Source: an uncultured archaeon (GTDB lineage: Archaea; Aenigmatarchaeota; Aenigmatarchaeia; QMZP01; JAFGSV01). Taken from it: a DNA stretch of 26,110 bases. The stretch covers positions 1-26,110 of the forward strand of contig CAZGWZ010000002.1 in the NCBI GenBank assembly GCA_964529545.1, written 5' to 3'. Within the stretch, counting starts at the first letter, position 1; the number at the start of each line of letters is the position of its first letter. The position numbers and the translations under genes were made by a program. Under the pieces are notes generated by a model. The model did not search any database and was not told the origin of the DNA. It worked only from the letters and a program-made list of their open reading frames with translations. Of the stretch, positions 1 through 20,004 are shown piece by piece.

Positions 1-2
1 GC

Positions 3-3000: not shown

Positions 3001-6000
3001 ATTCCGCGACGCCCTCGGCCAACGTCATTTACATAAATGCGACCAAGCCGTCCACTAACGACCCGTCGCCGACGAACACCACGACCGTGACTGTGAGGGG
3101 CATACTGTACATGAACATGACATCCCCGCTGAACGGGACCCTGATACCGAAGACCGTCTCCAACTTCCTTGGAAACGTCAGCGTGTGGGACGAGAACGGG
3201 AACTACACTCTCTCCGTGACGGTCAAGTGGTATGACAAGAAGATGGGGCTGCTCATCATATTAGGTGGCAGCGGAAGGGAGCAGTACATAGACCCAGACC
3301 CGATGGAGACGGGCATCCAGAACATAACGGCAGTCACCAGCAAGACATATTTCGATACGACCAGCCAGAACGTCACGGTAGTAGTATCGGCGGCCGCGAG
3401 CGTCCTCTGGATTTCCCCGCCCCACCTCAGCACGGTCCCGTATCCGAGCCCCTTCAACTTCACGTGCAGGGTGAGGGACGACAACGGCCTCATGGGCGTT
3501 GAGAACTACCCAGTCGAGATATGGTACATGAACGAAGGGGAGAGCAGTTACACCTACAACGGCACGTTCTACACTAACGCGACGGGCTACGTCACAAGGC
3601 CCTGGATACCAGTAGACAAGCTGGACGTCAACCTCAAGTGCAACATAACCGACAACCAGACGCTGCTTTACAACGCATCCACCACTGACGCCGACGCGCT
3701 CATATACATACAGGACAACGAGCCGCCGCAGATACACAGCGTTACCGTGGTACCTAATGCCAGCATGGAGGCCAACCTGAACATGACGAACATAACGGCA
3801 GTCGTGACCGACAACTACAAGGTTTACGAGGTCTACGCCCGCATATTGGTCCCGGGCCTCGGATATAACGATACCAAGATGATGAACACATCGGAAGACA
3901 CGTTCACGATAAACTACATGCCACCTGTGGGCGGCACGTACAACCTGACGATCAGGGCGTGGGACCCCTTCGACGAGCACAACCTCAACGAGTCCGAGAT
4001 ATACCAGTTCACCGTATGGGGAAAGAACGACGGCATAATAAACTCCTCGCCGAGCACCGTCATCGCGTCCGGGATAACCCAGACGGATGACTTCAAGTTC
4101 AACATAACCGTCAATTTCACCAACCCAGGACCGGCCAGGATGTACGGGGTCAACCTGACGCTCTATGACGACTCATCCAATGAGACGGCCTACAGGAACA
4201 TAACCACGCAGCAGCTCCAGAACAACTACACATGCGGGACCTTCGATGTCTCAAGGGGCCTGTGGACGCTTTATCCGGGAGAGTCCTGCGCCTTCAACCT
4301 GTCCGTGACCGTGAAGGAGAAGACATGGCCCAAGCTCATAAGCGTGCACGCCAACGGCACGTGGACGAACCCCGACAAGACCATAAACAGCACGGAGGAC
4401 ATGACCTTCGTCGTGGTATCATCGAACCCTGTGGTCGACATAATAGAGGACATCATTGAGCAGACGACCCCGCACGGCCAGACCACGTTCGTAGACAACA
4501 TAACGGTCGCTTCGGTGGGCAATGACTGGATCCAGAAGGTCAACGTCATAACCTTGGGAGGCAGCATAGGCCTGCCCACGTCACAGGGCGGCTGCCCTGG
4601 ATGCGCGGTAGATATAGACCCGAGCGATTACCAGACGTTCATAATGCCGGGAACGAACTTCAGCACCGACATAACGATAACGGTTCCTGCCGGCCAGCCG
4701 CCAGGCTACATTTGGACGCTGCTTGTAGCCAACGCGAGCAACACCGGGAACGACGAGGCGATAATGAACGTCACGGTCCCGCTTGACAAGACATGGGACA
4801 GCGGCCCGTCCACCTTCGGGACCATTTTCACCCCGCTCGGAACCAACGGCACGATAGGGGTGATAAACTACACGAACACTGGTAACGTCAAGCTGACGAT
4901 ATCATTCGGCAAGAGCGGGCAGAAGGCGAACCTGGTACGCATGAACGACGAGATCTCCGGGCTCATATCATTCGATGTTGACAGGCAGATAGGCGGAGAG
5001 GTGGGCATCACATATTCGATTCCCGTTACCGAAGACCCAGGACTTCATGACATAACCATAAGCATACTCGCCACGGTGACAGACGACGGCGCCATCGCTA
5101 ATCCGCCTTCGAGACAGGTCACTTTCACACTCAACATAACCAACCCGCCGCCGACGATAGGGAACATAACGGTCGACCCCGTTGAGTTCGAGCCTCTGTT
5201 CGGCAACACGAACGTAAGCGCCACGATAACGGATAACGGCATAGTCGATTATGCATGGATGACGGCAACGTGGCCAGACGGCACGAACGTAACGTACCCG
5301 ATGGACCATAACGCTTCCTACTACTGGAGGACCTTCACGGCAGACGTCATAGGCGTCTATGCCTTCCAGGTGTGTGCAAACGACACGGAGAACCTCATAA
5401 GCTGCGAGACTGTCTACGGCCTTGCGACCCTGAATACCACCGTGCTCGCGGTGCCAAACGAGACCACCCTGTACATATCCAATATGACTGTCTATCCGAA
5501 TGCCACGACCGAATACAACCTCACGTTCAACACGACCGCCGGATACGTGCGCGCCTTCGGGATCAACGTGACGATAACGACGCCCAACTCCACGACATGG
5601 AGCGTCACGCCTGACTACTTCGCATTCCCGGTAATCTATGCGAACAAGAGCGAGACGAGGAACACCAGCATAGTCGTGCCTCCGGGCCTCGTCGCAGGCA
5701 ATTACAGCGTCGTGTTCAATGTAAACTGGTCCAACGTGGACAACACCACCGCTAACAGCACCACCAACTTCACGGTCGTCGTGCTGGAGAACGAGCTGAT
5801 GGACGTCCTGAACGACAATGTCACGGTCTGGATAACCAACGGCACTTACGGCGATGAGAACATCACGATACTGTCCGCGGGAAGCGTCAACATATCGAAC
5901 GTGACCGCTGACTGCATCTCAGGATTCGTATGCACTGACGGCAACTTCACGGTCGTATTCAACCCCGACAACATAACCACGATAGAGCCAGGGCATACGG

Positions 6001-9000
6001 ACAACATAACCATAGGCGTATACATACCGTCAGAGCTGCCGGCCGGGTCATACACGGGAATCATAAACGTGACCGCGGATAACTGGCTTTACGAGGTGCT
6101 GAATCTCACGCTCAGAATACCCGAGAACCTGACATGGCTCCAGACACCGTTCGTCATAGAGAAGACCATCATACACGGCACCAGCGGAATAGCCGACATA
6201 ATAAACATAAAGAACATAGGAAACGTGGACCCGACCGAGATAGACGTATACATGGATGAGACGAGAGGCAACTACACGTACTTCGGCCTGGACAAGGACG
6301 TCGTCATACTCAGCCCGACCATGAACGAGAACGTCACGGTGAACTACACCGTTCCCCTGCTTTCCGGGTACGCTAACATAGTGGGCTATGTGATGACGAA
6401 GAACGTGTCTGCCAAGACAGGGACGCTGATAAACGAGACGCTCGTGAACCTGAGCGTGCATCCATACTCGATAGACATACTCAGTCCGCTTGAGACCGAC
6501 CCGGTAATGGGCGTCATGTACACCCAGGAGCTCCAGATAGAGGTGAACCTCACTTACGCCGGAGCCGGCATCAACGACACCAACAACGTCACCTGGGGCG
6601 CGGGGCTCTTCAACACCACGGGAGCCTACCCCGTGAGCATAACCAACACCACATACAACGCCTCTTCCGGGACGTGGCTTTTGAACTTCACCGCCCCGAA
6701 CCTCCAGAACGCGACGGGATACCATATGAACCTCAGCGCAAACTACAGCCATGTCATGGGAGCCGGCGCGAACGCGACTGTGGTAAACCTCTACTACTGG
6801 GACGTCGAGTACAGGTCCGTGATATACGTGGATCCGGTGCCTCCGGACATAGTCATAGGCATAAGCCCGTTCCCGAAGGTCTCCAGAGGCAACCCGGCGA
6901 CCATAACGGTCAACGTGACCGACGCCGGCGGTGTCGCCAACGTGTCAGCCTTCGTCGAGCATCACAACATTACCGAGAGCGTCAACCTCAGCTTCATCAA
7001 GTGGGTAGGCGACACGTACTTCTACAGTGGCGTGTTCACAAATACCACAGAGAAGGGAATATACAACGTCAACGTCACGGCCTACGACATATCCTCCAAC
7101 TACAACACTACGAACAAGAGCTTCCAGGTCTCGGTGCTCGTGTACTTCCACGGATACGCGCTCGATCAGGACGAGCCTGACCCCAAGCCTCCAGTGAGCG
7201 TCAACTACAGCATGTACTTCCTGGATGCGGGCAGCACCATGTCAAGCATAGCGACGGACGCAAACGGATACTACAACAAGACCCTTGACGCCGGGCTATA
7301 TGACATATTCATACGCGTCTGGAACGAGACGCTGTATGTGAGAAGCACGGACATACAAAGACACATGTATAACCCCCTAGTATTCGGTAACATAAAAGAC
7401 ATAGGTCTCGTCGGCTACAACACGAGGGGACTTTTCGAGGCAAGGATATTCGAGGCCAACGACAGCATGTTCGCAGGCAACAAGAGCGACAACACCACGT
7501 GGAACGACACCTTCGAGTTCACGTTCGATAACGTGACTCTGAGCTTCAACTACTCCTCATATTCAGGCGACATAATAAGCACCAACCTGCTCGGCATATA
7601 CCAGTGCACTGACTGGGTTCAGGGAACCGGATGCACGGGCCTGTGGAACAGGCTCAGCGGCGCAGGCGTGAACAGCACGCAGAAGACCATATCAGTAACG
7701 CTTACGTCACTTTCGGGCGGTTATGCCGTCGCCGAGTACATCTGCGGGAACGAGGAGTGCGAGAACGCTTATGGCGAATCGGTCGGTAACTGCCCGCAGG
7801 ACTGCGAGGTAAGCGAGGAGGAGCAGCCGCCTCCTGAAGAGGGCGGAGGCGGCGGAGGCGGAGGCGGCGGAGGCGGCGCCGGTGCTGCAGCCGCGGCAAT
7901 AACGCCACCAAGGATGCCCGTGGAGATAGACTCGCAGCTCATATTCGTGACGCTGCGCCCGGGCGAGCACGAGATACACAGCATAGACATAAAGAACAGC
8001 CTCCCGGCCACGATAACAGCTGACGTGAAGGCTACAGGCAATGCTTGGGAGCTCGTGATGATAGAGCAGCCCAGCATAGACATAAGGGCAGGGTCTACAG
8101 GCACCATAAAGATAAAGGTCTTCACGCTCCCGTCGACCATGGAGGGCATATACACGGGCGACATAGTGACGACCATAAGGGACAGGAACATAACGCACGT
8201 TACGCCGATAACAGTGAAGGTTGAGAGGCCCAAGGAGCCGCTGCTTGACGTCAAGGTCAAGGCGCTAAGCAAGACGGTGGAGCCCGGGACGAACCTTTCG
8301 CTTGAGGTAACGCTTCTCAACATGGGAGAGACCGCTGAGATAGACGACGTTGTGATAACCTATGAGATAAGGCATCTGGACAATCCGGAGATTGTGATAA
8401 GGGAGAGGGAGACCCTGGCGATAGACCAGGTCAAGACTTTCAAGAGGAGCATGTTCATACCCGAAGACACCCTCATAGGAAGGTACTCCGTCGAGCTCAA
8501 CGTGACCTACTGGGACGGACAGAAACAGGCATTCGCGATAGACTCCTTCGACGTACTCTATGTGGCGCCGCCTCTGAAGATGCTTCAGGCGCTGTTTTCC
8601 AGCTGGATAACGTATGCCATAATATTCGCTCTGATACCAGGCTACCACTTCGGCTCGCAGTTCTACCGCGACTGGAGAAAGAAGAAGAAGGCCAAGACGA
8701 GGTACATATTCCCGATGAACGTCAACAAGCTTCCGAAGGCGGGAGATGCCTCGCTTCTCGTAGGAAAGGTCGCAGAGACTGAGATAAAGGCGTACATGAC
8801 CATGAGCGACCTGACGACGCACAGCATAGCCGCAGGTTCTACGGGTGCCGGAAAGTCGGTGTCGGCACAGGTCTGCTCCGAGGAGCTTCTCAAGAGGGGC
8901 GTTCCGATAGTCGTAATAGACCCGACCGCGCAGTGGACAGGGTTCATGAGGCCGTGCAAGGACCCGGCGATGCTAGAACTTTATCCGAAGTTCGACCTGA

Positions 9001-9776
9001 GGCCTGAGGACGCCAGGGCGTTCAAGGTCAACGTAATGGTCGCGGAGAATGCAGACTTCCAGGTGCCTTGGAAGGAGGTCATGGAGAGGAAGGGCGAGAT
9101 GACGGTCATAGTGACGGAGAAGCTTCCGAACAAGGACATGGACACGTTCGTGAGAAAGACGGTCGAAGGCCTGTTCGCCATGAGGCTTCCGGAGGCCCGC
9201 GAGATGAAGATGATGATGATATACGACGAGGTCCACAGGCTGCTTCCGAAGTACGGCGGCAAGGGCGGCTACATAGTCCTTGAGAGGGCATGCAGAGAGT
9301 TCCGTAAGTGGGGCATCGGCATATTCATGATATCCCAGGTCCTTATGGACTTCCGTGGGGCGATAAGGGCGAACATATCCACGGAGATACAGCTCCGTTC
9401 GAAGTACGAGGGCGACATAAACAGGGTAAAGACCAAGTACGGTCCGGACTATGCGAGCAAGATTACCAAGCTCGTCACAGGCACGGGTCTCATGCAGAAC
9501 GCTTCCTACAACGACGGTAAGCCGTGGTTCGTCTCCTTCAGGCCGCTTCTTCACGACACGAAGAGGCTGACAGCAGAGGAGATAGACAAGTACGTCAAGA
9601 TAAGCAAGGAAGCTGACCAGATAAAGGCGCAGCTTGCCGCAGTGAAGCAGAAGGGCGTCGATACAGGAGACGTCGAGGTCGAGCTCAACCTTGCCCTTGA
9701 CAAGCTCAAGCAGGGACTGTTCACCATGGCCGAGAGCTACATGGAATCCGTGAGGACAAGGGTGAAGGGACTTTAG
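3..9776 (+). CDS. Giant membrane-anchored surface glycoprotein fused to a C-terminal cytoplasmic HerA/FtsK/VirB4-superfamily (DUF87-like) ATPase; 5'-partial, >3257 aa
   Basis: The frame is open from base 3 (STESEADGWYNCTW...APFY) into the track's ATG at 111, so the true start lies upstream of the window. More than 2860 aa of beta-rich, N-x-S/T-dense sequence come first. They are followed by a Cys motif (7743-7805), Gly12 linker (7842-7877), Ig-like domains, hydrophobic span LFSSWITYAIIFALIPGYHFGSQFY (8592-8666) and basic stop-transfer RDWRKKKKAKTR. The ATPase has Walker A GSTGAGKS (8835-8858), Walker B MMMIYDEVH (9210-9236), REFRKWG (9294-9314) and ISQ. Confidence 0.9.
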   Translation, partial: STESEADGWYNCTWQSATYDSSSWWNIRFDISAPFYMPNTTIKENAFYLGEIPELTNPTVNGQTQYLGGWGEDYDFLLHIKDDDQNWNNVSLMKSFDTYSWNETAMQRIHVTYEKYLPSDFPEFQDLSFACADYLSGPLNYFKYYTIDEPGGFTDETGTNLSKSMHTASTPDSGFGHNENVLEINIVNYFIVTVQNTNGTDIYVNVSVNGYPLVTDYMVTDGTNMTVDARTNGSSFSLPGMQTINVTILNSSGSVANATYAAFLRYYAGLLELELQPDNVTLTVNGTASDDDVRRLGSDTAKLQYTIRDYDRNPDVYPSGVDGLVWIRQYGDTPLYETVHETLDEYAILHQTSSDTGFNHTEDVSSYGEMSTFNVTVTNGNGSTIYINMTVNGVQIASNQSIANGASFRADAIDQGAGFTVPGTQTINVTMYEVLGNITNSTKVIRNMTYYQDTGFVYNETVSEPYVLNYTKMNYFNMTVMNLNATPILFNLTLNGFQLADNQSIPAGGNVSIGAVDLGAGFNIPGDQEINMTVLGPSGQPANAYYLVLLKYSYERLFIPQATYGAYLEYAVKDSGFDYNKYINGTGEVISFSVRVENLNESTLYVNLSVNGVQIASNQSVASGTNLTVDAISAGASFSVPGYHPINLTVMDSSGQPANASYKAHIIYLPGLISLPCTSVANGQCSINYNPSCNSFAGIQRWRGQTDDVCYDTPYGPYENVIVYGQLYSHPYIPVPGSIINKNTYITFNATVTDDCGKFVNDSSVAWRNQTGGLIGTGYGASWFVPPNYNLSLNPSTFYVNATRQYYDPNGTYFSLWVYGWSGIDWITPANSSEFSAGDDVPVTCHVVDVDTGESIQSYPVYFYENGSLENVNVTDENGSAHWVWDTSTEIAGYHNISCSITDNATLYFNATQYVNYSTILIHRPLGISEIWQNYSWVYRNDSFAPNQTYIRVRVKDANLPPPNEYAQNAFVHFYNSTHYLGNCTTNSQGYCFFIFNPDDSATPSANVIYINATKPSTNDPSPTNTTTVTVRGILYMNMTSPLNGTLIPKTVSNFLGNVSVWDENGNYTLSVTVKWYDKKMGLLIILGGSGREQYIDPDPMETGIQNITAVTSKTYFDTTSQNVTVVVSAAASVLWISPPHLSTVPYPSPFNFTCRVRDDNGLMGVENYPVEIWYMNEGESSYTYNGTFYTNATGYVTRPWIPVDKLDVNLKCNITDNQTLLYNASTTDADALIYIQDNEPPQIHSVTVVPNASMEANLNMTNITAVVTDNYKVYEVYARILVPGLGYNDTKMMNTSEDTFTINYMPPVGGTYNLTIRAWDPFDEHNLNESEIYQFTVWGKNDGIINSSPSTVIASGITQTDDFKFNITVNFTNPGPARMYGVNLTLYDDSSNETAYRNITTQQLQNNYTCGTFDVSRGLWTLYPGESCAFNLSVTVKEKTWPKLISVHANGTWTNPDKTINSTEDMTFVVVSSNPVVDIIEDIIEQTTPHGQTTFVDNITVASVGNDWIQKVNVITLGGSIGLPTSQGGCPGCAVDIDPSDYQTFIMPGTNFSTDITITVPAGQPPGYIWTLLVANASNTGNDEAIMNVTVPLDKTWDSGPSTFGTIFTPLGTNGTIGVINYTNTGNVKLTISFGKSGQKANLVRMNDEISGLISFDVDRQIGGEVGITYSIPVTEDPGLHDITISILATVTDDGAIANPPSRQVTFTLNITNPPPTIGNITVDPVEFEPLFGNTNVSATITDNGIVDYAWMTATWPDGTNVTYPMDHNASYYWRTFTADVIGVYAFQVCANDTENLISCETVYGLATLNTTVLAVPNETTLYISNMTVYPNATTEYNLTFNTTAGYVRAFGINVTITTPNSTTWSVTPDYFAFPVIYANKSETRNTSIVVPPGLVAGNYSVVFNVNWSNVDNTTANSTTNFTVVVLENELMDVLNDNVTVWITNGTYGDENITILSAGSVNISNVTADCISGFVCTDGNFTVVFNPDNITTIEPGHTDNITIGVYIPSELPAGSYTGIINVTADNWLYEVLNLTLRIPENLTWLQTPFVIEKTIIHGTSGIADIINIKNIGNVDPTEIDVYMDETRGNYTYFGLDKDVVILSPTMNENVTVNYTVPLLSGYANIVGYVMTKNVSAKTGTLINETLVNLSVHPYSIDILSPLETDPVMGVMYTQELQIEVNLTYAGAGINDTNNVTWGAGLFNTTGAYPVSITNTTYNASSGTWLLNFTAPNLQNATGYHMNLSANYSHVMGAGANATVVNLYYWDVEYRSVIYVDPVPPDIVIGISPFPKVSRGNPATITVNVTDAGGVANVSAFVEHHNITESVNLSFIKWVGDTYFYSGVFTNTTEKGIYNVNVTAYDISSNYNTTNKSFQVSVLVYFHGYALDQDEPDPKPPVSVNYSMYFLDAGSTMSSIATDANGYYNKTLDAGLYDIFIRVWNETLYVRSTDIQRHMYNPLVFGNIKDIGLVGYNTRGLFEARIFEANDSMFAGNKSDNTTWNDTFEFTFDNVTLSFNYSSYSGDIISTNLLGIYQCTDWVQGTGCTGLWNRLSGAGVNSTQKTISVTLTSLSGGYAVAEYICGNEECENAYGESVGNCPQDCEVSEEEQPPPEEGGGGGGGGGGGGAGAAAAAITPPRMPVEIDSQLIFVTLRPGEHEIHSIDIKNSLPATITADVKATGNAWELVMIEQPSIDIRAGSTGTIKIKVFTLPSTMEGIYTGDIVTTIRDRNITHVTPITVKVERPKEPLLDVKVKALSKTVEPGTNLSLEVTLLNMGETAEIDDVVITYEIRHLDNPEIVIRERETLAIDQVKTFKRSMFIPEDTLIGRYSVELNVTYWDGQKQAFAIDSFDVLYVAPPLKMLQALFSSWITYAIIFALIPGYHFGSQFYRDWRKKKKAKTRYIFPMNVNKLPKAGDASLLVGKVAETEIKAYMTMSDLTTHSIAAGSTGAGKSVSAQVCSEELLKRGVPIVVIDPTAQWTGFMRPCKDPAMLELYPKFDLRPEDARAFKVNVMVAENADFQVPWKEVMERKGEMTVIVTEKLPNKDMDTFVRKTVEGLFAMRLPEAREMKMMMIYDEVHRLLPKYGGKGGYIVLERACREFRKWGIGIFMISQVLMDFRGAIRANISTEIQLRSKYEGDINRVKTKYGPDYASKITKLVTGTGLMQNASYNDGKPWFVSFRPLLHDTKRLTAEEIDKYVKISKEADQIKAQLAAVKQKGVDTGDVEVELNLALDKLKQGLFTMAESYMESVRTRVKGL
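567..1988 (+). repeat. Four dispersed copies of a 72-aa coding repeat (567-782, 1116-1331, 1425-1640, 1773-1988), each preceded by a D[ST]GF motif
   Basis: Copies share F-x-V/M-x-V-x-N-x-N...N-x-S/T-V/L-NG...G...DA/AV...G-A/S-x-F-x-V/I/L-PG...IN-x-T. Copies 2 and 4 share gtcaacggcgtccagatagc exactly (1173-1192, 1830-1849). Confidence 0.85.
2478..3680 (+). repeat. Two copies of a ~90-aa Ig-like module with a conserved Cys pair (2478-2738, 3408-3680)
   Basis: WITP..TCHVVD..YPV..ISCSITDNATLYFNAT versus WISP..TCRVRD..YPV..LKCNITDNQTLLYNAS. Confidence 0.7.
7842..7877 (+). repeat. Poly-Gly (12 codons GGC/GGA) flexible linker
   Basis: In-frame GGC/GGA run after PPPEE and before AGAAAAA. Confidence 0.9.
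8700..9600 (+). other. HerA/FtsK/VirB4-type P-loop ATPase domain within the giant CDS (approximate bounds)
   Basis: HSIAAGSTGAGKS, VVIDPT, hhhhDEVH, RxFRKWG and ISQ occur in the order typical of the HerA-FtsK superfamily. No N-terminal HAS barrel is evident; the domain follows the membrane span directly. Confidence 0.88.
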
Positions 9777-9784
9777 CATAAACT

Positions 9785-9790
9785 GGAGGT
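9785..9790 (+). promoter_or_regulatory. Shine-Dalgarno GGAGGT for the 9797 gene
   Basis: GGAGGT lies 6 nt upstream of ATG 9797, in a 20-nt intergenic gap. Confidence 0.75.
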
Positions 9791-9796
9791 ATAGAT

Positions 9797-12019
9797 ATGG
9801 CAAAGGATGGCGAAGAAGGAAACGGGAAAGCCCCCGAATCTCCGGGGGAGGAGAAGGAGAAGCTCAGGTCCAGACTGGAGTCTAGGATGAAGGGCTTACT
9901 AAGCAGGCCAGGGAAGGGCGACAGGAAGGATGATGGTACCGGCGGAGAAATGGGCGCTGCCGATGGCGGCGCCGGCGCGGGGGCCGAAGAGAATGCAGAA
10001 GACCAGCCCAAGCCCGGCGAGAGCAAGCCCGAAGAGAAGAAGCCAGAAGAGCCGTCTGCTCCTCCAGCTGACGAGCCCGCGGCTTCTGCCGAAACTGCAT
10101 CTCCTGCAGAGCAGGCCGATGCAAAAGGCATGAAGAACATAAGCGAGTCGCCTGCTAATGCAGAAGAGAAGACTCCTGCTGAAGATAAGAAGGAGAAAGA
10201 CAAGCCTTCCGATGACGGGGAGAATGAAAAGCAGAAAAAGAAGGAATCCGGGAAAGCTCCTGAAAAGAAGGCCGATGAAGACGACGAGCCGGAAGGAGAG
10301 GACGAGGATGATGATTCAGAAGAGGCGAAGAAGCCTGAAAAGAAGGGCGGGAAACGAGAGGACAAGAAGGGAGCGAGCGATGCCGGAATGCCGAATGAGT
10401 CCCTTGAAGAACTCCAGAGCCAGAAGGATGAGATAGAGGCACTCCTCTCATCAGTGGAGGATTCCTACAGGGATGCCACCCTTCCTGACAAGACCTACAG
10501 GGAGGTCAAGGAGAAGAACGAGAAGAAGCTGGCTGACATAAACGTGAAGATAGAGAAGATAAAGAAGGCCGGAGGCGGCAAGGATTTGCCATCCCCAACA
10601 GAGAAGGCGACAGGCGTCCCGTCATCGAGCCAGGAGCTTGAGGATGTGCAGAAGAGGATGGAGGCCGAGGCGTCCTTTGCAGGAAGCGGCACCTCGTCCG
10701 GCTATCCCGGGCAGGTGCCCGGAGGCGCTGCACCTTCTTTATCAGGCGAGCCGCCGTCACTCCAGGATAAGGAGACCAAGAAGGCTGAGGCTCTCATAAA
10801 GATACTGGAGCAGAAGATAGAGGACAGGCTGAAGGACGTCATAGCTTCCGCAAGCGTCGAGGTAACCGACAAAAGGCTCAGGAAGATGGAGACCAAGGTC
10901 GACGAGCTGGAGCTTCTGCTGAAGTCGAAGGTAGACGTGATCACAGGCGAACTGAGGAGCGTGAAATCATCCGCCGAGTCTGTCTCGACTTATGACAAGC
11001 AGTTCACGTCGATGAAAACGGATATAGAGAAGGTCAAGGCTCTGGTGGACAGCGTCAAGGAAGCCAAGAACATAGTGGACGAGAAGATGCAGAGGGTGGT
11101 GGAGAACTTCGCCGAGATAAGGTCCATAGTCTATCAGAGGGAGGCCAATTCAAAGGAGCAGAACGTCCTCATGGACAAGCTCAAGGACACAGTTTCGCAG
11201 ATAGACTCGGCAAGGATACTGCGTGAGTTCACGACAAGGGACGAGCAGATGAGGGATGTCAACACGAGGGTGGAAAGGCTCGAGAGGACCAACAAGATGA
11301 ATTCCGACAGCCTGTCCAAGATAAAGGGTCTCATGACCGACATAGGGAGCCTGGAGAACATAATAAAGGCCAGCAAGCACGTCGGAGAGAAGCTCGAGCG
11401 CATACAGGAGATAGAGGAGAGGCAGAAGGCCACGACGTCGAGGCTTGACGGCGTATATGTGGACATGAAGAAGAAACTGGACGAATTCAACGACTACAAG
11501 ATAAAGCAGGACAAGCTCAACGGCATGGTCGAGGATGTCGTCAAGAACGTCGAGGAGGTCTCAAGGAGGCTATCCGACTATGCGACAAAGGCGGACGTCA
11601 CAAGTGTCAAGGACGAGCTGAAGGTGGTGAGGCAGACCGCGACAGCCGCCGCCTCAGCGCCGCATGTTCAGACGGCATCGCCGGCGGCTTCCGGCACTAG
11701 CCCGGAGGTCTCAAAGCTCAGAGAGCAGAAATCCGAGATAGAGACGATGCTCGCCACGCTTGAGGAGAACTTCAATGCCAAGGCTATGAGCGAGGATGAG
11801 TACAACAGCGCCAGGGAGAAGAACATGCAGAAGCTCGTCGAGCTCGAGAAGAAGATAAGCGCTGCCTCGTCATCAGAGGCTTCCAGCAAGACGGCTTCCG
11901 GGAGCGGAGGAAGCCACTCGAAGGTGATGCTCCTTGCAAAGCTGAAGGAGTCCTATGAGAACGGCGAGATAAGCAGGAACGCTTATGAAAAGAGCAGGAG
12001 GGTCCTCCTCGGAAAGTGA
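9797..12019 (+). CDS. Cytoplasmic protein: disordered acidic/Pro/Lys-rich N-terminus, long coiled coil and three SHOCT-like helical units (740 aa)
   Basis: Good RBS and no hydrophobic span. E/K/P/D-rich first ~200 aa and a heptad-like central region. SHOCT-like segments at 10403-10540, 11708-11845 and 11921-12016 (LKESYENGEISRNAYEKSRRVLL). Confidence 0.85.
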   Translation: MAKDGEEGNGKAPESPGEEKEKLRSRLESRMKGLLSRPGKGDRKDDGTGGEMGAADGGAGAGAEENAEDQPKPGESKPEEKKPEEPSAPPADEPAASAETASPAEQADAKGMKNISESPANAEEKTPAEDKKEKDKPSDDGENEKQKKKESGKAPEKKADEDDEPEGEDEDDDSEEAKKPEKKGGKREDKKGASDAGMPNESLEELQSQKDEIEALLSSVEDSYRDATLPDKTYREVKEKNEKKLADINVKIEKIKKAGGGKDLPSPTEKATGVPSSSQELEDVQKRMEAEASFAGSGTSSGYPGQVPGGAAPSLSGEPPSLQDKETKKAEALIKILEQKIEDRLKDVIASASVEVTDKRLRKMETKVDELELLLKSKVDVITGELRSVKSSAESVSTYDKQFTSMKTDIEKVKALVDSVKEAKNIVDEKMQRVVENFAEIRSIVYQREANSKEQNVLMDKLKDTVSQIDSARILREFTTRDEQMRDVNTRVERLERTNKMNSDSLSKIKGLMTDIGSLENIIKASKHVGEKLERIQEIEERQKATTSRLDGVYVDMKKKLDEFNDYKIKQDKLNGMVEDVVKNVEEVSRRLSDYATKADVTSVKDELKVVRQTATAAASAPHVQTASPAASGTSPEVSKLREQKSEIETMLATLEENFNAKAMSEDEYNSAREKNMQKLVELEKKISAASSSEASSKTASGSGGSHSKVMLLAKLKESYENGEISRNAYEKSRRVLLGK

Positions 12020-12026
12020 TGGGACG

Positions 12027-15000
12027 ATGATAGGCACCAAGAGCATTACGGGGATAGCACTTGTGGGAATCATAGCCTTAGTGTTCATCCTCAATGCCAG
12101 GTTCACGGGCTCCTACGTCTACGTTCCGGGCTCCACTTCCGGGCTTGCAATATGGAGCTCCTATGACCCGCAGGGAGGTTCGATCGTACCCTTCATAAAC
12201 GAGAACATGACTTTCTATGCGAACTTCACTACGCTTGGAGGGGCGCCCATAGCAGGCGCCGGCGTGACATGCGACATAGAGTTCAACTCGACCGGCTTCT
12301 GGACGGCTCCGGCCGGGATGACATACGACCCGGGAAACCAGCTCTACGGGTACGAGGGAAGCTTCAAGTACTCGGGGAACCACAGCTTCAGGGTGACCTG
12401 CAACGGCTCCACGCAGGGATACGATGCGAACCTCCAGGGCAACGACACCTATAATGTGCACAAGAACGAGTGGTGGAATGCGACTTGGACCTACAGAATA
12501 AAGATAAGCCTTTACAATCACGGGGTGCAGCTCGACGACTGGCCGGTGGAGGTGGACCTCAACCTGACAGAGGTGCTGAGGCAGATCAACGTGGAGGGCA
12601 CGTTCGACGACAACTCCACGAGGGTCGTCGAATACAATTCCACTGGCGGCGTCATGCACCCTCTTCCGAGCCAGTTCGACAAGGACCTGCATCACAATCC
12701 GGCGACGAACGCCTTTGGAACGCTCGTCTTCATGGCAAACGGTACTACGCCCGCAAACTACAACAGGACGTTCTTCATGTACTTCGACATAGAAGAGAAC
12801 GGCCTCAAGGAGCAACCTTCCTATCCCACCAACATAAGCTACCTGCTTTCGGGAGACGAGATACACATAAACACCACGTCCTTCAGCTTCTACATGGACA
12901 CCAACAGGAGCGATAACACCTCTGGCCTGTACGACGTCAGGTTCAAGGACTATCCTGTCCCGTTCTTCATTGTGGATGAGACCGGGAGGACGGCCGAATA
13001 CAGCGAGTACTCAAACGGGACCAACAACCTCAGCTTCGATTTCACCTCGGGCGTGGCCATAATAGAGGGCCCCCTGAGGCTCACCGTCATACAGACGGGA
13101 GACGAGGTGCTCTTCGGTGACCTCTCGTCCCCGACGGGCGAGGGCATGATGGTAAAGAAGTACCACTTCTACAACAAGGCCGGGAACGAGACCCTTGGCG
13201 CTTTCATACACATAACCCAGAACTACACGAACATTGCGGCATACCCGGTACAGCGCAATTCCACAGCCATGGGATCGATAGCATTCGATGTCGGCAGGGC
13301 ATGGCAGGGTCTTGGTTCAAGCGTGTCCTTCTACGATGGCAATTCCAGCGACCCCGGCTCGTGGGTCATGGCGGGCTCGGACGCCCAGGAGGTACTGGGC
13401 ATGGTCAATCTCAACGAGACGACGGACGAGTTCTACGTCTACAACTACACACCATATGAGAGGATAGGAGTGCAGCTCGATTCAGTCACCGTAGACCCGT
13501 TCGAATCGATAATACAGACAGCTTTGCTATACATAGGAAGCGGTTCCACGTCGGAGTTCATCGCGGTCAGAGACATAACAAGGGACATGCCTGCAGTGAC
13601 CTCCGGAAGCTACGAGACCATGCCTATGGAATCGATCACACACACAGACTACGACGTGTACAACAGGAACGAGACCATATTCATAGAGTCGAACATAACC
13701 TACGACCCGTACAGCTTCCTGGACACGGTGAACGTGAGCCTGAGCAACGGGACCCCGGGAGCCGGGGACGACATAGAGATAGAGGTCTATGATGACGGGA
13801 GCCATGGAGACCAGGTCGCCGGAGATTACGTCTATTCGAACTTCTTCAACATATCAACCACGGAGAATACGGGACTGTGGACGGCAAGTACCATAGTCTA
13901 TGACATGTTCGGCGTGCCCGTTAACCAATCCCATAAGAACTTCACCATAACTAAGACCTTCTTTGTAAACACCAGCGTGATAAACCAGAACGGCGAGATA
14001 GACAGGGAAGTAAATGCCACGGTCTTTGTGATGAACTACCGGCAGGACACGTGGCAGGAGGGCGCTTTCGTCAACTGCTCGGTCTACGATTCCACGACGC
14101 TCCTGTACACTGTAGATCAGCAGGACGTCAACCAGACCGAGCCCGGAAGGTTCTTCGTCAACTTCACAGCCCCGTGGTATTTCGGATCCTTCACGCTCAA
14201 CTGCACCGCCGGGAAGGATGGCAATGACGGGTCCGACATATCGGACTTCGGCGCCGAGGACGTTGAGACCGACATCGACATAACCGTGCAGCCGGAGAAC
14301 CACACATTCGTAAACATAACTTGGATAACGGGAGACAACATCACCCTCAGGGTGAACGCCACTAACACTCAGAACGGAACCGCGTACAACGCGACCGTCG
14401 ACCTGGAGCTGCCCTCAAACATAACGGCGAACTCGACGTCATACATATGCGAGACCGACGAGGGAGCCAAGCAGATAATGATAGGCAAGGCGTGCTACGT
14501 GGACTTCGTCATAAACGTTATGAACACGACAGCACCGTCCAACTTCACATTGAACGTGAGCGTGACATGGAACAACAGCAACACAATCATCGGTCACAAC
14601 GAGACCAGCATGAACGTCACGATACTTCCGACATACCTCATGAGCGTTCCTCAGGACAACATAATAACCATGATAGCCCGCGGCATAAACAAGTCGCTCT
14701 CAAACATCACCATATACTCTTACGGAAACGCGCCCCTCGAGAACGTCAACTTCGATGTCATCGGGTTCAGTCAGGCATTCCACTTCTCGTTCATACCTTC
14801 AGGCTACACCCAGGTTAATGCGGGCGTGACCACGGAGTTCGCCGCTTACCTCCTCGTGGACGAGGGATACTCGACAGGATTTTTCACGGGGATCCTGAAC
14901 GTGACGACTTCTAACAACGGCTACAAGGAGCTGGAGCTGAACATCACCGTCTCGGGCACCAACGTAAGCATAAACGTGCTCCCGGAGAACATCACGGCCT

Positions 15001-18000
15001 CGAACATAACTTACTATGACAGCCAGAACTTCACGCTCGACTTCAATTCCAGCAACATGGGAAACAACACGGCATACAACACGAACGTGACCATAAACTT
15101 CTCAAGCCCTTACATAAGCACCACCAACTCGACCAACTACCAGTGCGGCGACCTGCAGCCCGGCGAGAACTGCTCCGGAATATTCCTTCTTACCGTATCA
15201 AACGGGACGCCTTCGGGCCTTTACGATGCCAACGTGACCGTGGTATGGGGGAACCCTGAGATAGGGGTCATGATGAACTCGAGCGTCATCAACATAACTG
15301 TTGAATCCAACGTGAACATGACCATAAACGAGACGAGCATAAACGGCACGGTGGTGCACGGCACTACCGGCGTCATAGGAAACTTCTCCATGAACTCGAC
15401 CGGAAACGATCCCGTAACCGGCATAGAACTGACGATAGTTGACACATACGGACAGCTGCAGGACTTCACGGTGAACGTCATACCTAACGTAAGTGCCACC
15501 CAGGGAGGCAACATGACATCCGGACAGCTGGTGTACGTAGACGTCGAGGTGTCGGTCCCGCTCGGCTATCCAAACGGGACGTATGCCGGATTCCTCAACG
15601 TCACAAGCAACAACTCGGGCTACAGGCTCCTTGGAATTGAGGTGACGGTCCCCGAGACCAGGACATGGGACATGAGCCCGCTGGACTGCATGCATCCCGA
15701 GTCCCCGGAGTTCGGCACGGTCTGCAATGTCACAATCGAAAACACCGGCAACGTCCAAATAGAGTTTGACATCTATCCGCCGGCGACCGGCGACAGCAAC
15801 CTGACCATGAACAACTACACCTGGCCGTCTGTGACGTACTTCAGTATAGAGAACCAGTCGTCTTTCATACTCAGCATCTATTATAACGTGACGGACGCGC
15901 CCCTCACGTTCTACAACTCGAGCTACAACGTAACGGGAGTATACACCGTTCCTCAGAGCAGGAACGTATCGATACTTCTTACGCCGTTCGTGAATCCCCT
16001 CATCAACATTTCAGTGTCTCCATCGTCACTTCCCCAGCAGAACTCCACGGAGCTCGTCGCATACGTTCTTGACCAGGGAGGGGTAGCCGGAATCAATTTT
16101 ACACGCGTCAACGTGACGAGGCCCAACGGCACCGTGGACCAGATAGTAATGAGATATCTTGGGGGCACGGACCCTTACATATATCAGGAGTTCTACCCGG
16201 CAGACCCGTTAAACGGGACATGGGGAAGCACCCTTTCAAGAGGCAACTATACCGTCGTCGGCTATGCAGAGGACAACCTCGGGCTCAATCAGACTGCGAA
16301 TTCCAGCTTCTACGTCTACGTAGTCCTCGTTGCCGGAATAAGCACGTCGCGCTCTAACGGCGAATACTATCAGGGGGAGACAGGGACGCTGCTGTTCAAC
16401 GTCACGGAACTTTCGGGAATCCCGTTATCGGGAGTCAACGTCTCGATAGTCATAAAGGATCCCACCAACCATTCCGTGGGCATGCAGAACTCCGAGTTCT
16501 TGACCAATTCCCAGGGAGAGCCGAGCTCATACCCGACATTCGAGCTATTCTCAGACTCTCTCACGGGGACCTACAACATAACCGTGACATCCGCATTCAA
16601 TGACACACCCGTATCCCGTATTTGCTACGACACTTCATATTCAAGCTTCACCGTCCTGGAGACCACGCCGGGCGTGCTCACCCTAGACCTAGAGGCGCCT
16701 TCCGAGGTCAGCACGGGCGACGGCCTTGAGGTTTACGCCACCATAACAAACGGGGTCAATAACATAGATCCTGACTGGATAATGGTGTCCCTATACGACT
16801 CCCTTGACAATGCGATACTCACAAATCAGACGATGACATACCAGTCCACGGGAAGGTACAGCAGATGGCACAACACCTCCGCCTCCGTCAACACGGGCAG
16901 CTGGAGGTGGCACGTCACCATAGGAAAGGACGGAAACGTAATATCAAAGGACGTGTTCACGAGGCTGGTCGGAGGCCTGTTCGACGTGAGGGACATAACG
17001 ATAGTGGACAACACGATAGAGGACCTTCAGATAACGGTAGTCATAGAGAACACGGGAGACATCCCCCAGGACGTGTTCGTCCTCTGGAACCTCACGAGGC
17101 TTGATACGGGAGCGCCGCTTCAGGAGGGACTCGATACCGTGAGGATAGACCCGCTTACATCCTACGTGTATACCATAAACCCAAGCGGGATAACTTACAC
17201 AGGAAGCGCAAGGATACTATTCGTTGCATCCTACTCAGGCACCGAGAAGGCCGCGGCGTTCGAGGACTTCACGATACAGGAGGGCGGCGAGGGGCCAGCT
17301 CCTCCGCCGGGCGGCGGAAAGACGAAGGAGGAGGAGGCGCCTTCCGGAGGTGCGGGTCTGGGGCCGGTAGGAGCACCTGACATAGAGATAACCGACTATC
17401 CGGACGAGATACCGACCGAGGCAGGGAGGCTGCAATACCCGTCGGTGACGGTGAACAACACGGGGTCGGTCTCCCTTCATAACGTCATGATAAGGATAGA
17501 AGGCATACCAAATTCGTGGTACAATGTAACGCCGAAGCTCATACCTATAGTGAATCCCGGCTCCACAGGGACATTCGTAATAAACATGCTCGTCCCGCAG
17601 GGTACCGAGGCAAGGCAATACTATGGCGTCATAAACGCCACCTCTGACGAGGCAAAGGACGAGAAGATAACATCGGTCATAGTCTTCGGCTCCAGGGAAG
17701 AGCTCGTGAGGTACCAGCTGCAGAAGCTCAAGGAGGAGTTCAAGGAGTTCAGGGAGGACGTCAACGCCACGGCTGCCATGGGAGAGAAGGACCTCAGCAG
17801 GGTCTACGGGCTCATAGACGAGATACAGTACCAGATAGACCTTACCGAGGGATACCTCGACGCGAAGATGTACGACGAGGCGCTGGAGGCGGTCACCACC
17901 GGGTGGAGGCTCCTTGACAGGGCCAGGGAGCTGCTTCGTGACGCTCCTCCGCTCAGGCCCGTTACCATACTGGAGATACCCGACTGGATGATAACGCTTA

Positions 18001-18326
18001 TACTGATACTTATAATATTGGCCCTGGCGCTCGTGGTGGTCATAAGCAGGTACAAGAAGAAGCTGGAGAAGGTATTCAAGTTCAGAAAGACCGTGACGGA
18101 CTCTGTCGCGGCAGCGGACGTGTTGGGCTCATTCGGCGGCGGTGGCGCCCCAAGCAAGGTGGAGCAGGAGGCCATAGCCAGGACGAGGCGCGAAGAGGAG
18201 AAGAAGAAGATAGAGAAGGTGCTGTCCCTTCTGGAGAGGGAGTACAAGGAAGGCATAATATCAGAGAAGGCATATAACGAGCTCGTCAAGAGGAACGCGG
18301 ACAAGCTCAAGGAGCTCGGAGGCTAG
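12027..18326 (+). CDS. Second giant surface glycoprotein (~2099 aa): N-terminal signal/TM, DUF2341-like and Ig-like domains, C-terminal TM and SHOCT-like cytoplasmic tail
   Basis: ATG 12027 (7 nt after the previous stop) gives MIGTKSITGIALVGIIALVFILNARFTG, a signal-like start. The track's start at 11985 overlaps the upstream gene. Other elements: WWNATWTYRIKI (12471, DUF2341-like start), YDDGSHGDQVAGDYVYS (13788-13838, acidic Ca-binding-like), Gly/Pro linker near 17283-17370, TM WMITLILILIILALALVVVI (17985-18044) followed by RYKKK, and dense N-x-S/T. Confidence 0.88.
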   Translation: MIGTKSITGIALVGIIALVFILNARFTGSYVYVPGSTSGLAIWSSYDPQGGSIVPFINENMTFYANFTTLGGAPIAGAGVTCDIEFNSTGFWTAPAGMTYDPGNQLYGYEGSFKYSGNHSFRVTCNGSTQGYDANLQGNDTYNVHKNEWWNATWTYRIKISLYNHGVQLDDWPVEVDLNLTEVLRQINVEGTFDDNSTRVVEYNSTGGVMHPLPSQFDKDLHHNPATNAFGTLVFMANGTTPANYNRTFFMYFDIEENGLKEQPSYPTNISYLLSGDEIHINTTSFSFYMDTNRSDNTSGLYDVRFKDYPVPFFIVDETGRTAEYSEYSNGTNNLSFDFTSGVAIIEGPLRLTVIQTGDEVLFGDLSSPTGEGMMVKKYHFYNKAGNETLGAFIHITQNYTNIAAYPVQRNSTAMGSIAFDVGRAWQGLGSSVSFYDGNSSDPGSWVMAGSDAQEVLGMVNLNETTDEFYVYNYTPYERIGVQLDSVTVDPFESIIQTALLYIGSGSTSEFIAVRDITRDMPAVTSGSYETMPMESITHTDYDVYNRNETIFIESNITYDPYSFLDTVNVSLSNGTPGAGDDIEIEVYDDGSHGDQVAGDYVYSNFFNISTTENTGLWTASTIVYDMFGVPVNQSHKNFTITKTFFVNTSVINQNGEIDREVNATVFVMNYRQDTWQEGAFVNCSVYDSTTLLYTVDQQDVNQTEPGRFFVNFTAPWYFGSFTLNCTAGKDGNDGSDISDFGAEDVETDIDITVQPENHTFVNITWITGDNITLRVNATNTQNGTAYNATVDLELPSNITANSTSYICETDEGAKQIMIGKACYVDFVINVMNTTAPSNFTLNVSVTWNNSNTIIGHNETSMNVTILPTYLMSVPQDNIITMIARGINKSLSNITIYSYGNAPLENVNFDVIGFSQAFHFSFIPSGYTQVNAGVTTEFAAYLLVDEGYSTGFFTGILNVTTSNNGYKELELNITVSGTNVSINVLPENITASNITYYDSQNFTLDFNSSNMGNNTAYNTNVTINFSSPYISTTNSTNYQCGDLQPGENCSGIFLLTVSNGTPSGLYDANVTVVWGNPEIGVMMNSSVINITVESNVNMTINETSINGTVVHGTTGVIGNFSMNSTGNDPVTGIELTIVDTYGQLQDFTVNVIPNVSATQGGNMTSGQLVYVDVEVSVPLGYPNGTYAGFLNVTSNNSGYRLLGIEVTVPETRTWDMSPLDCMHPESPEFGTVCNVTIENTGNVQIEFDIYPPATGDSNLTMNNYTWPSVTYFSIENQSSFILSIYYNVTDAPLTFYNSSYNVTGVYTVPQSRNVSILLTPFVNPLINISVSPSSLPQQNSTELVAYVLDQGGVAGINFTRVNVTRPNGTVDQIVMRYLGGTDPYIYQEFYPADPLNGTWGSTLSRGNYTVVGYAEDNLGLNQTANSSFYVYVVLVAGISTSRSNGEYYQGETGTLLFNVTELSGIPLSGVNVSIVIKDPTNHSVGMQNSEFLTNSQGEPSSYPTFELFSDSLTGTYNITVTSAFNDTPVSRICYDTSYSSFTVLETTPGVLTLDLEAPSEVSTGDGLEVYATITNGVNNIDPDWIMVSLYDSLDNAILTNQTMTYQSTGRYSRWHNTSASVNTGSWRWHVTIGKDGNVISKDVFTRLVGGLFDVRDITIVDNTIEDLQITVVIENTGDIPQDVFVLWNLTRLDTGAPLQEGLDTVRIDPLTSYVYTINPSGITYTGSARILFVASYSGTEKAAAFEDFTIQEGGEGPAPPPGGGKTKEEEAPSGGAGLGPVGAPDIEITDYPDEIPTEAGRLQYPSVTVNNTGSVSLHNVMIRIEGIPNSWYNVTPKLIPIVNPGSTGTFVINMLVPQGTEARQYYGVINATSDEAKDEKITSVIVFGSREELVRYQLQKLKEEFKEFREDVNATAAMGEKDLSRVYGLIDEIQYQIDLTEGYLDAKMYDEALEAVTTGWRLLDRARELLRDAPPLRPVTILEIPDWMITLILILIILALALVVVISRYKKKLEKVFKFRKTVTDSVAAADVLGSFGGGGAPSKVEQEAIARTRREEEKKKIEKVLSLLEREYKEGIISEKAYNELVKRNADKLKELGG

Positions 18327-18490: not shown

Positions 18491-18514
18491 AATAATCATA
18501 AACAGGGTGTGAAA

Positions 18515-19230: not shown

Positions 19231-20004
19231 ATGGCAAGGATTATAGGCATACTATCTGGAAAGGGCGGGGTGGGCAAGACGACCACCGTCGCAAACGTCG
19301 GGACAGCCCTCGCCTCGCAATACAAGAAGAACGTGATAATAGTCGACTGCAACATAACCACGTCCCATCTCAGCCTTTACCTTGGGATGTACTATTCGCC
19401 CGTGACGCTGAACCAGGTGCTGACGGGCAAGGCCAAGATACACGAGGCCATATACGACTACCACGTCCCGGGACTCCGGGTCATACCGGCATCTCTCTCC
19501 TTGAAGGACCTTCGTGGCGTGGACGTCTCAAGGCTGTCCAAGGTAGTAAAGAAGATAACCGACGAGGCGGACATAGTGCTCCTGGATGCAGCTCCCGGCA
19601 TGGGACGCGAGGCCATGTCGACGATGCGCGCAAGCGACGAGGTCCTCTTCATATCGACTCCTTTCGTTCCGTCCACGATGGACATAATAAAGTGCCATCA
19701 GGTCGCTCTCGAGGTAGGGACCAAGCCCCTCGGGATAGTGCTCAACATGGTCGGCAAGGAGAAGTACGAACTGTCCACCGAGGAGGTGGAGCAGCTGGCG
19801 GAACTCTCGGTCATACAGGAGATACCGATGGACAAGAACGTCCTTCGAAGCCTCGCCCTCAAGACGCCTGTAGTGTCCTTCGACCCGAACTCTCCCGCAA
19901 GCCGGGCGTTCCTGGAACTTGCCGGCAAGATAATAGGAGAGAAGTACGCGCCGGAGAACTTCTTCACGAGGTTTGCAAGGCTCTTCGGGATAGGAAAGAA
20001 GTAG
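19231..20004 (+). CDS. minD: MinD/ParA-family ATPase, archaeal MinD type
   Basis: Deviant Walker A GKGGVGKTT (19258-19284), VIIVDCN, IVLLDAAPG and a C-terminal amphipathic membrane-targeting helix FFTRFARLFGIGKK (19960-20001). Confidence 0.9.
   Translation: MARIIGILSGKGGVGKTTTVANVGTALASQYKKNVIIVDCNITTSHLSLYLGMYYSPVTLNQVLTGKAKIHEAIYDYHVPGLRVIPASLSLKDLRGVDVSRLSKVVKKITDEADIVLLDAAPGMGREAMSTMRASDEVLFISTPFVPSTMDIIKCHQVALEVGTKPLGIVLNMVGKEKYELSTEEVEQLAELSVIQEIPMDKNVLRSLALKTPVVSFDPNSPASRAFLELAGKIIGEKYAPENFFTRFARLFGIGKK

Follow-up and report, generated by a model that had tools for sequence, protein, structure and literature searches.

Organization of the locus

We analyzed a 26,110-nucleotide stretch of DNA from an uncultured archaeon of the Aenigmatarchaeota (contig CAZGWZ010000002.1 of assembly GCA_964529545.1; hereafter 'the window'), focusing on a short helix-loop-helix unit that recurs in two of its proteins. 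The long genes of the window, which lie on the plus strand throughout, encode in order a giant protein (giant 1), a 740 amino acid protein that we refer to as the adaptor, a second giant protein (giant 2), a 238 amino acid protein, a MinD ATPase, a 93 amino acid membrane protein, and three coiled-coil proteins. The adaptor contains three copies of the unit (u1, u2, and, at its C-terminus, u4) and giant 2 ends in a fourth (u3). The named homologs of the adaptor belong to Candidatus Aenigmarchaeota/Aenigmatarchaeota – identifying the locus as DPANN archaeal. An earlier reading of the window, made from the sequence alone, had described these segments as SHOCT-like oligomerization units and had proposed that the adaptor is a multivalent clamp that gathers giant 2 tails beneath the membrane.

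The adaptor gene (9797..12019, plus strand) encodes a soluble, acidic, coiled-coil protein. It lacks a hydrophobic segment and contains only 0.27 N-x-S/T sequons per 100 residues, within a locus where sequon density is 5.5-5.8 in the ectodomains of both giants versus 0.3-0.5 in cytoplasmic proteins. The adaptor is thus predicted to be cytoplasmic, and its placement by the sequence-only reading, between the giants in gene order and on the inner side of the membrane, agrees with these features. We found 25 adaptor homologs and aligned 20 orthologs (44-56% overall identity), all of which retain the three units. An AlphaFold2 (AF2) model based on the ortholog alignment has an overall predicted TM-score of 0.22, a low value as expected of a long flexible protein. 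The acidic N-terminal region is disordered in this model (residues 36-197), and u1 and u2 flank a conserved central helical core (10784..11656, plus strand; residues 330-620) that contains many invariant residues and is modeled as helices at residues 330-516, 527-595, and 598-620. Searches with the core returned only generic coiled-coil matches in Pfam and NCBIfam and no PDB relative by sequence profile.

The giant 2 open reading frame (11985..18326, plus strand; 2113 amino acids) shares, as listed, 35 nucleotides with the 3′ end of the adaptor gene (11985-12030 region). Because orthologous giant 2 genes start 5-8 nucleotides past the adaptor stop, with one overlapping it by 4 nucleotides, and because their membrane anchors begin only ~5-10 residues in, translation probably starts at the ATG at 12027 (Met15 of the reading frame). 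The protein comprises an N-terminal anchor, an ectodomain with 5.5 sequons per 100 residues, a NEW3 domain (Pfam NPCBM_assoc, 1.6e-12), a stalk, a transmembrane helix, and a tail, with hydrophobic segments at residues 18-42 and 1993-2025. The C-terminal transmembrane helix (17985..18047, plus strand; residues 2001-2021; Kyte-Doolittle score 3.54), which AF2 also models as a helix, is directly followed by a cluster of lysines and arginines, SRYKKKLEKVFKFRK. Based on the positive-inside rule and the distribution of sequons, of which the tail has none, the ~90-residue tail and its unit are predicted to lie on the cytoplasmic side, as previously proposed. Giant 2 is a type-I-like surface protein whose tail consists of a variable, flexible linker ending in one long unit. 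The linker between transmembrane helix and unit (18048..18194, plus strand) differs in length and sequence among orthologs. In an AF2 model of the C-terminal 224 residues it is disordered (predicted local distance difference test, pLDDT, below 50 at model residues 145-168), in between a three-helix stalk (pLDDT 88-96) and membrane helix on one side and the helix-loop-helix tail unit on the other. The stalk is juxtamembrane and extracellular (residues ~1904-1985; 17694-17939), is kept in relatives, and weakly resembles archaeal three-helix-bundle proteins (DUF357: PDB 2OO2, 2PMR), a similarity that is not significant.

A search with the giant 2 C-terminal region identified five homologous proteins and a genome scan identified nine loci. 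Orthologs of giant 2 (1956-2104 amino acids) adjoin the adaptor directly downstream. Five related loci (L001, L003, L006, L007, and L008) have the same gene order as the window: giant 1 with its HerA domain, adaptor, giant 2, a 222 amino acid protein, MinD, a 90 amino acid membrane protein, and a coiled-coil protein. The pairing is likewise present in L011 and L017, and in all nine distinct genomes that show both genes the adaptor is followed directly by a giant 2 with a tail unit. This count includes the distant lineage L018, which has kept the pairing with an adaptor of 553 amino acids and a giant of 1,956 amino acids, and which also encodes MinD and a 219 amino acid protein.

The four units and their relationship to SHOCT domains

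All four units are encoded on the plus strand. Within the adaptor, u1 occupies 10403..10570 (residues 203-258), with a 39-residue core at 10424-10540 (residues 210-248) and the loop ATLPD; u2 occupies 11702..11872 (residues 636-692), with its core at 11729-11845 (residues 645-683); and u4 occupies 11909..12016 (residues 705-740), with the loop NGEIS. The giant 2 unit, u3, lies at 18156..18320, with its core at 18201-18317 (residues 2073-2111) and the loop EGIIS. The four peptides named in the sequence-only reading are all present, including the shorter fourth copy at 11921-12016 (residues 709-740). Its starts for u1 and u2 (10403 and 11708) lie 21 nucleotides upstream of the peptides themselves, an offset without consequence, and 10403 coincides with the predicted start of the first u1 helix. 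AF2 models each unit as a helical hairpin with pLDDT 84-92: helices at residues 203-225 and 231-258 for u1 (84-92), 636-660 and 666-692 for u2 (85-92), 705-721 and 727-739 for u4, and 169-199 and 205-223 of the 224-residue giant 2 model for u3 (84-86).

The cores of u1, u2, and u3 align without gaps over 39 residues, with 12-15 identical positions per pair and BLOSUM62 scores of 74, 72, and 68. None of 200,000 shuffles reached these scores (best shuffle 47-55), and the next-best 39-residue windows among ~9,700 residues of window proteins scored 22-35. Hidden Markov models of u1 and u2, each drawn from the 20 orthologs, match each other (37.6 and 20.2 bits) and the giant 2 tail (14.4 and 15.9 bits, with E-values near 2-5e-4 in a six-frame translation), with nothing besides the units scoring above 6.2 bits in that translation. 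Profile-profile comparison with hhalign linked u1 to u2 at 98.2%, u1 to u3 at 95.8%, u2 to u3 at 96.6%, u2 to u4 at 84.9%, and u3 to u4 at 75.6%. The ungapped alignment first noticed in the sequence is therefore real. Its distribution over the two proteins, three units in the adaptor and one in the giant 2 tail, was borne out by a profile of six giant 2 tails: run along the full adaptor alignment (740 columns), it picks u2 (P 1.9e-7), u1 (6e-6), and u4 (0.0019), with the next match at 0.23 and none in the ~300-residue helical core.

A combined unit profile identified, at each locus, two long units and a weak u4 in the adaptor and one unit ending giant 2 (29.5-47.1 bits), and nothing else in ~250,000 amino acids of six-frame translation from nine loci; other helical segments used as negative controls gave no match. 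The segments are rich in lysine and glutamate and sit in or near coiled-coil proteins, features that would favor a chance or compositional resemblance among charged coiled-coil segments. These controls exclude that explanation, as does the ~2,200 residues of similarly charged coiled coil within the window, which score at most 35 versus 68-74 for the units. The sequence comparisons thus show that the units are homologous to one another.

The units are also under strong purifying selection. Across the 20 orthologs u1 is near-invariant at LLSS.ED.YR.ATLP..Y.EVK..NE..L. In u3, the glutamate, the G-I-I-S loop, and the tyrosine are invariant even in relatives of only 32-36% identity, in contrast to the variable linker. 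Every giant 2 ortholog has kept the tail unit. A profile that holds just the window's own tail, u1, and u2 gives orthologous tails 29.5-43.3 bits. Family-wide, the unit is a helix-loop-helix of ~45 residues with the consensus eK..Ie.lL.sLEe.y..g.Ise..Y.e.K.kN..KL.eI. Its conserved hydrophobic positions have heptad spacing, and a near-invariant asparagine (N38 in unit numbering; N241 and N676 of the adaptor, N2104 of giant 2) occupies a core-like position in helix 2. A buried asparagine in a coiled coil commonly enforces specificity of partner and register.

We then compared the units with SHOCT (PF09851) and SHOCT_2 (PF20612) domains (Eberhardt et al. 2013, PMC3581485). SHOCT is defined as ~30 residues forming two amphipathic helices, with a strongly conserved glycine and glutamate and no indels, and is C-terminal, within about 50 residues of the end, in 89% of its members (PMC3581485). 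The units share with these families two amphipathic helices, the loop motif L..L...G.I[ST]..[EA][YF], an indel-free core, and cytoplasmic, membrane-proximal contexts. All four are modeled as helix-loop(5)-helix; u4 spans ~30 residues, whereas u1-u3 span ~45-55, with a second helix, and partly a first, that is longer. The second helix of u1-u3 exceeds that of SHOCT by ~10-12 residues and carries a conserved K.KN..KL.eI. As to position, u4 ends at the last residue of the adaptor and u3 two residues before the giant 2 stop, both at the extreme C-terminus as in SHOCT, whereas u1 (residues 210-248 of 740) and u2 (57 residues from the end) are internal. A DPANN giant surface protein and a coiled-coil adaptor are likewise unlike the known SHOCT contexts.

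The hallmark glycine and glutamate are unevenly retained. The loop glycine is invariant in u4 (G723) and in the giant 2 tail but is replaced by alanine in this clade's u1 (DATLP) and by lysine or asparagine in u2. Glycine is nevertheless the consensus residue at this position among 300 long units, and distant u1 and u2 also have it, with EAGITE in distant adaptors where this clade has DATLPD; its loss from the window's u1 and u2 is therefore derived. The SHOCT glutamate before the second aromatic is found in u2 (S-E-D-E-Y), while u3 (S-E-K-A-Y), u4 (S-R-N-A-Y), and u1 (P-D-K-T-Y) have alanine or threonine.

Searches with Pfam models placed u4 closest to SHOCT. Against the PF09851 gathering cut-off of 27 bits, the window u4 scores 16.1-16.3 bits, and 11 of 17 u4 orthologs match; orthologous copies score 16-22 bits, apart from one at 27.6 bits over model positions 3-28 of 28. 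The window u1, u2, and u3 have no match to PF09851; among 40 sequences (u1 and u2 orthologs together with the window u3) two match, at E 0.0068 or weaker. Four of six giant 2 tails match SHOCT_2 (best E 0.011), and a more distant giant 2-like tail (P0169) scores 18.1 bits against SHOCT. Sub-threshold matches of u1-u3 to FIMAH, DUF883, cortexillin, and Topo-V HhH involve unrelated helical families and were taken as noise.

A broader search connected the long units to SHOCT indirectly. A long-unit profile run against 1.84 billion representative proteins returned 279 matches at E <= 0.001, among them P0130 (E 1.1e-10), a protein with five tandem repeats that passes the Pfam cut-offs for SHOCT (70.1 bits), SHOCT_2 (38.4 bits), and GvpG (66.4 bits). 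Each unit aligns with the P0130 repeats over the same columns and without gaps, and u1-u3 align with one another, ungapped, over 39-47 columns in register with these repeats. A deep profile of 300 long units aligns, in one register, with that of 69 u4-type units (hhalign 96.6%, P 6.8e-10) and with the P0130 repeats (94.2%, P 1.2e-7). Given these profile links to the u4 type and to the Pfam-passing P0130, we assign u1-u3 to the SHOCT superfamily as an extended variant that falls outside PF09851 by its own threshold, and u4 as a canonical, though borderline, SHOCT domain. The description of the units as SHOCT-like thus stands at the superfamily level, with u1-u3 below every Pfam cut-off; similarity to PF09851 is direct for u4 and transitive, through u4 and P0130, for the other three.

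Two further groups of proteins contain related hairpins. GvpG (gas vesicle protein G; PF05120, cut-off 30.6 bits) is the family that all four unit types match most consistently, at model positions 29-67 and in one register, and it appears to hold a SHOCT-like hairpin with a longer second helix. The window units nevertheless reach only 13-19 bits and the best ortholog 23.3, the match is confined to the hairpin portion of the model, gas-vesicle genes are absent from the locus, and GvpG itself is a small, free-standing protein. The SHOCT-like domains of PSP, Toastrack, and band-7 proteins (Ravi et al. 2024, PMC11237479) are divergent bi-helical relatives at the termini of unrelated intracellular and membrane proteins, where they are proposed to assemble membrane-associated complexes (PMC11237479). 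They differ in being bacterial, in being fused mostly as one or two copies to globular domains, and in that their proposed role is inner-leaflet anchoring rather than tail-adaptor pairing.

Examining the architecture of 147 matched proteins, we found a clean division between soluble proteins, most with several units, and membrane proteins with a single unit in the tail. The 139 proteins that lack a transmembrane segment have one to three units each, with at least two in 108 of them, while the eight that have a transmembrane segment carry exactly one unit each, C-terminally and after the last such segment. The family reaches at least Aenigmarchaeota and Micrarchaeota. On an unrelated metagenomic contig (L020, 7815-9795), four neighboring genes contain a unit in each product: the cytoplasmic tail of a giant, the tail of a 200 amino acid membrane protein, an acidic, soluble protein of 291 amino acids that has two units, and a partial reading frame on the opposite strand. 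SHOCT and SHOCT-like domains are already known. The literature that we searched holds no description of the extended variant, of its systematic adaptor/giant tail pairing, or of the operon around it, and no account of the unit from DPANN archaea.

Candidate roles of the unit

We reasoned that the units could be like-with-like docking modules. Under this proposal, the giant 2 tail hairpin would pack against an adaptor hairpin, for example as a four-helix bundle, and would thereby tether one or more giant 2 molecules to a submembrane coiled-coil scaffold, next to two ATPases from the operon, MinD and the one carried by giant 1. On its own, a single ~45-residue hairpin that ends a flexible linker would probably not be stable, and pairing in a four-helix bundle would therefore be the simplest account of the conservation of the tail unit. 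A multivalent soluble protein that meets monovalent tails through a common module would also give both the observed split in architecture and the strict adjacency of the two genes. Docking of the adaptor units with the giant 2 tail unit – the clamp of the sequence-only reading – is the best single hypothesis that we can offer, though we hold it tentatively and rate its likelihood a little short of even. Hairpin-to-hairpin binding, its stoichiometry, and any clustering effect are what we infer from these patterns.

Several observations weigh against docking. Pairing might just as well take place inside the adaptor, between u1 and u2. The window u1, u2, and u3 reach no Pfam cut-off. The sequence-only reading had treated SHOCT as a known oligomerization-associated unit, a premise that was overstated and that the literature does not support: in the sole experiment on SHOCT self-association that we found, Cd4-SHOCT fusions were monomeric by size-exclusion chromatography (PMC3581485), and a comparative study instead proposes inner-leaflet anchoring (PMC11237479). 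Charge offers little help. In the close family the mean charge is −5.6 for u1, −4.3 for u2, and +2.3 for the tail unit, but this complementarity is not kept in distant lineages, where u2 of L018 has a charge of +2 and the giant tail of L020 one of −1. We consequently give little weight to the acidic-adaptor/basic-tail pattern as an argument for binding.

Structural comparison offered a parallel that is similarly limited. In the ESCRT-I headpiece (Vps23/TSG101, Vps28, and Vps37; PDB 2F6M, 2P22, and 6VME), comparably sized hairpins contributed by separate subunits pack next to one another in a hetero-oligomer. Local Foldseek superposition of the units on these hairpins gave TM-scores of 0.73-0.85 and root-mean-square deviations of 0.5-2.5 Å over 53-63 columns, and weak Pfam matches to Vps23_core and VPS28 were found. 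The Foldseek matches are not significant (E 0.65-1.9), a further point against docking, and we treat the resemblance as an analogy only, with no demonstrable homology.

The anchoring proposal itself provides an alternative, in which each hairpin would independently attach to the inner leaflet, the adaptor would be a peripheral protein with three weak anchors, and the tail of giant 2 would rest flat against the membrane. A common location, and not mutual binding, would then account for the shared motif. For SHOCT-like domains of bacteria, anchoring has been put forward on the basis of domain architectures and gene neighborhoods (PMC11237479), the giant 2 tail unit is mildly basic (+1 to +4), and in all membrane-protein examples the unit is cytoplasmic and follows the last transmembrane segment. 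The adaptor units, however, are strongly acidic (−2 to −9), which would be unfavorable on the typically anionic surface of a membrane. A tail that is already held by a transmembrane helix needs no second anchor, yet the unit is its most conserved part, and the heptad hydrophobic pattern is one expected of helix-helix packing within or between hairpins. We consider anchoring unlikely as the explanation for the shared unit. We give a similarly low standing to the idea that the units dock on a common third partner without touching one another, a partner that would join the adaptor to giant 2 or regulate both. The MinD ATPase is a possible partner of this kind, and the HerA-type ATPase domain of giant 1 and the 222-238 amino acid protein are others; every close relative has all three in synteny with the pair, with MinD and a 219 amino acid protein also present in the distant L018, and u1, u2, and u3 have in common the surface residues K7, E18, S27, K35, N38, and K41 (unit numbering). 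On the other side, the unit genes of L020 cluster with no MinD or HerA gene in the visible ~9.8 kb, and no evidence favors any one candidate.

It is also conceivable, but more improbable than either of these, that the hairpins are purely structural – intramolecular caps or folding nuclei of helical regions that spread by duplication and have no part in intermolecular recognition. The positions of u1 and u2 on either side of the long helical core of the adaptor would suit such a role, two-helix hairpins are common generic building blocks, and the Foldseek matches are non-specific. The giant 2 tail is harder to reconcile with it: here a solitary unit follows a variable, disordered linker and has nothing that it could cap, and a hairpin of this length would not be expected to be stable without a partner. 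The near-invariance of the tail unit and its conserved co-occurrence with the adaptor argue instead for a specific interaction.

Should the units bind each other, this would show SHOCT-like hairpins to act in docking and would give a first insight into how the giants of DPANN archaea, which are presumed host-contact structures, are linked to cytoplasmic ATPases and scaffolds. SHOCT domains are widespread, yet since 2013 no experiment has defined a function for them, in part because they are largely missing from most model organisms. The locus is an unusually clean natural test system in this respect, with a three-unit soluble protein and a next-encoded membrane protein that carries one unit on a flexible tail. 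A more far-reaching speculation, which we regard as improbable, is that the extended hairpin is a modular 'zip code' that couples the tails of giant glycosylated surface proteins to an internal machine in DPANN archaea (at least Aenigmarchaeota and Micrarchaeota). Such a machine would combine a MinD ATPase that binds the membrane with multivalent adaptors of the coiled-coil type and with a giant that has a HerA/FtsK-type translocase fused to it. If correct, this would amount to a transmembrane linkage that positions and clusters the apparatus with which these episymbionts contact their hosts and possibly transfer DNA or cargo. SHOCT would then have a defined biochemical function for the first time, the heterotypic docking of one hairpin on another.

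A different coiled-coil system, CdvA (PDB 9S9I/9S9G; PMC12818579), also surfaced in the comparisons. Residues 151-172 of the S. islandicus coiled-coil domain resemble u4, a match that is not significant (PDB search E 1.2), and the CdvA-like coiled-coil Pfam model (PF18822, cut-off 30 bits) is weakly matched by 7 of 17 u4 orthologs (best E 0.013; units 13.7-14.6 bits). Head-to-tail hydrophobic contacts between CdvA coiled-coil domains build its filament (PMC12818579). The adaptor differs in having no PRC domain by Pfam scan, and there is no ESCRT-III partner in the locus. The published polymerization-interface mutations of CdvA, at I149, M153, and I156, have nearby residue numbers, though the numbering of the PDB chain and that of the paper may differ. 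Foldseek searches of both AF2 models against the PDB gave no match at E <= 0.001; the ESCRT-I hairpins gave the best local superpositions, with CdvA further down the list, and matches to ribosomal proteins and PspA/Vipp1 were rejected as long-helix artifacts. Neither the unit alignments nor the full adaptor alignment found anything significant in sequence-profile searches of the PDB, and matches to the mineralocorticoid receptor, syntaxin-6, and a LOV2-DARPin fusion were rejected as chance.

Other genes of the window

Giant 1 (1..9776, plus strand) exceeds 3,221 amino acids, its 5′ end being open at the first bases of the window, and one ortholog is called at 10,499 amino acids; the L005 sequence (1-9969) also covers the orthologous region. 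A sequon-rich ectodomain is followed by a membrane segment (8604-8666) and a cytoplasmic P-loop ATPase of the HerA/FtsK/VirB4 type, with the Walker A motif GSTGAGKS at 8835-8858. The ATPase matches DUF87 (5.9e-8) and HerA_C (1.1e-6) in Pfam, and its best NCBIfam match is the DNA-translocating ATPase CedD (1.8e-9, far below cut-off). The fusion of a giant glycosylated ectodomain to a translocase-type ATPase is unusual. Profile searches detected no unit in giant 1, and a relationship between its C-terminal helices and the giant 2 stalk was rejected (hhalign probability at most 1%).

Between giant 2 and MinD lies the gene of the conserved 222-238 amino acid protein (18467-19183, plus strand), which is syntenic in all relatives examined. 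The protein has no hydrophobic segment and no match in Pfam or NCBIfam. The archaeal MinD-type ATPase (19231..20004, plus strand) matches TIGR01969 at 244.6 bits versus a cut-off of 201.75 and is syntenic in the five loci that share the full gene order. Its C-terminus, FFTRFARLFGIGKK, resembles an amphipathic membrane-targeting helix of the MinD type.

Downstream of MinD, the coiled-coil protein encoded at 20351-22300 (plus strand) has no units by profile search. We rejected the possibility that it is a paralog of the adaptor: the two have in common just a 17-residue motif and weak coiled-coil similarity. A 51-nucleotide direct repeat (84% identical) at 10133-10183 and 20561-20611 encodes KNISESPANAEEK and sits in the disordered N-terminal regions of both proteins. 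It is not conserved among adaptor orthologs and may be a recent local copy, the product of gene conversion, or a genome-specific short linear motif. The third coiled-coil reading frame (24436-26110, plus strand) starts at an ATG directly after the stop of the preceding gene and leaves the window at its 3′ end. Two minus-strand reading frames in this region (24507-25571 and 25611-26048), which are rich in serine and leucine, are antisense artifacts of the purine-rich coding strand.

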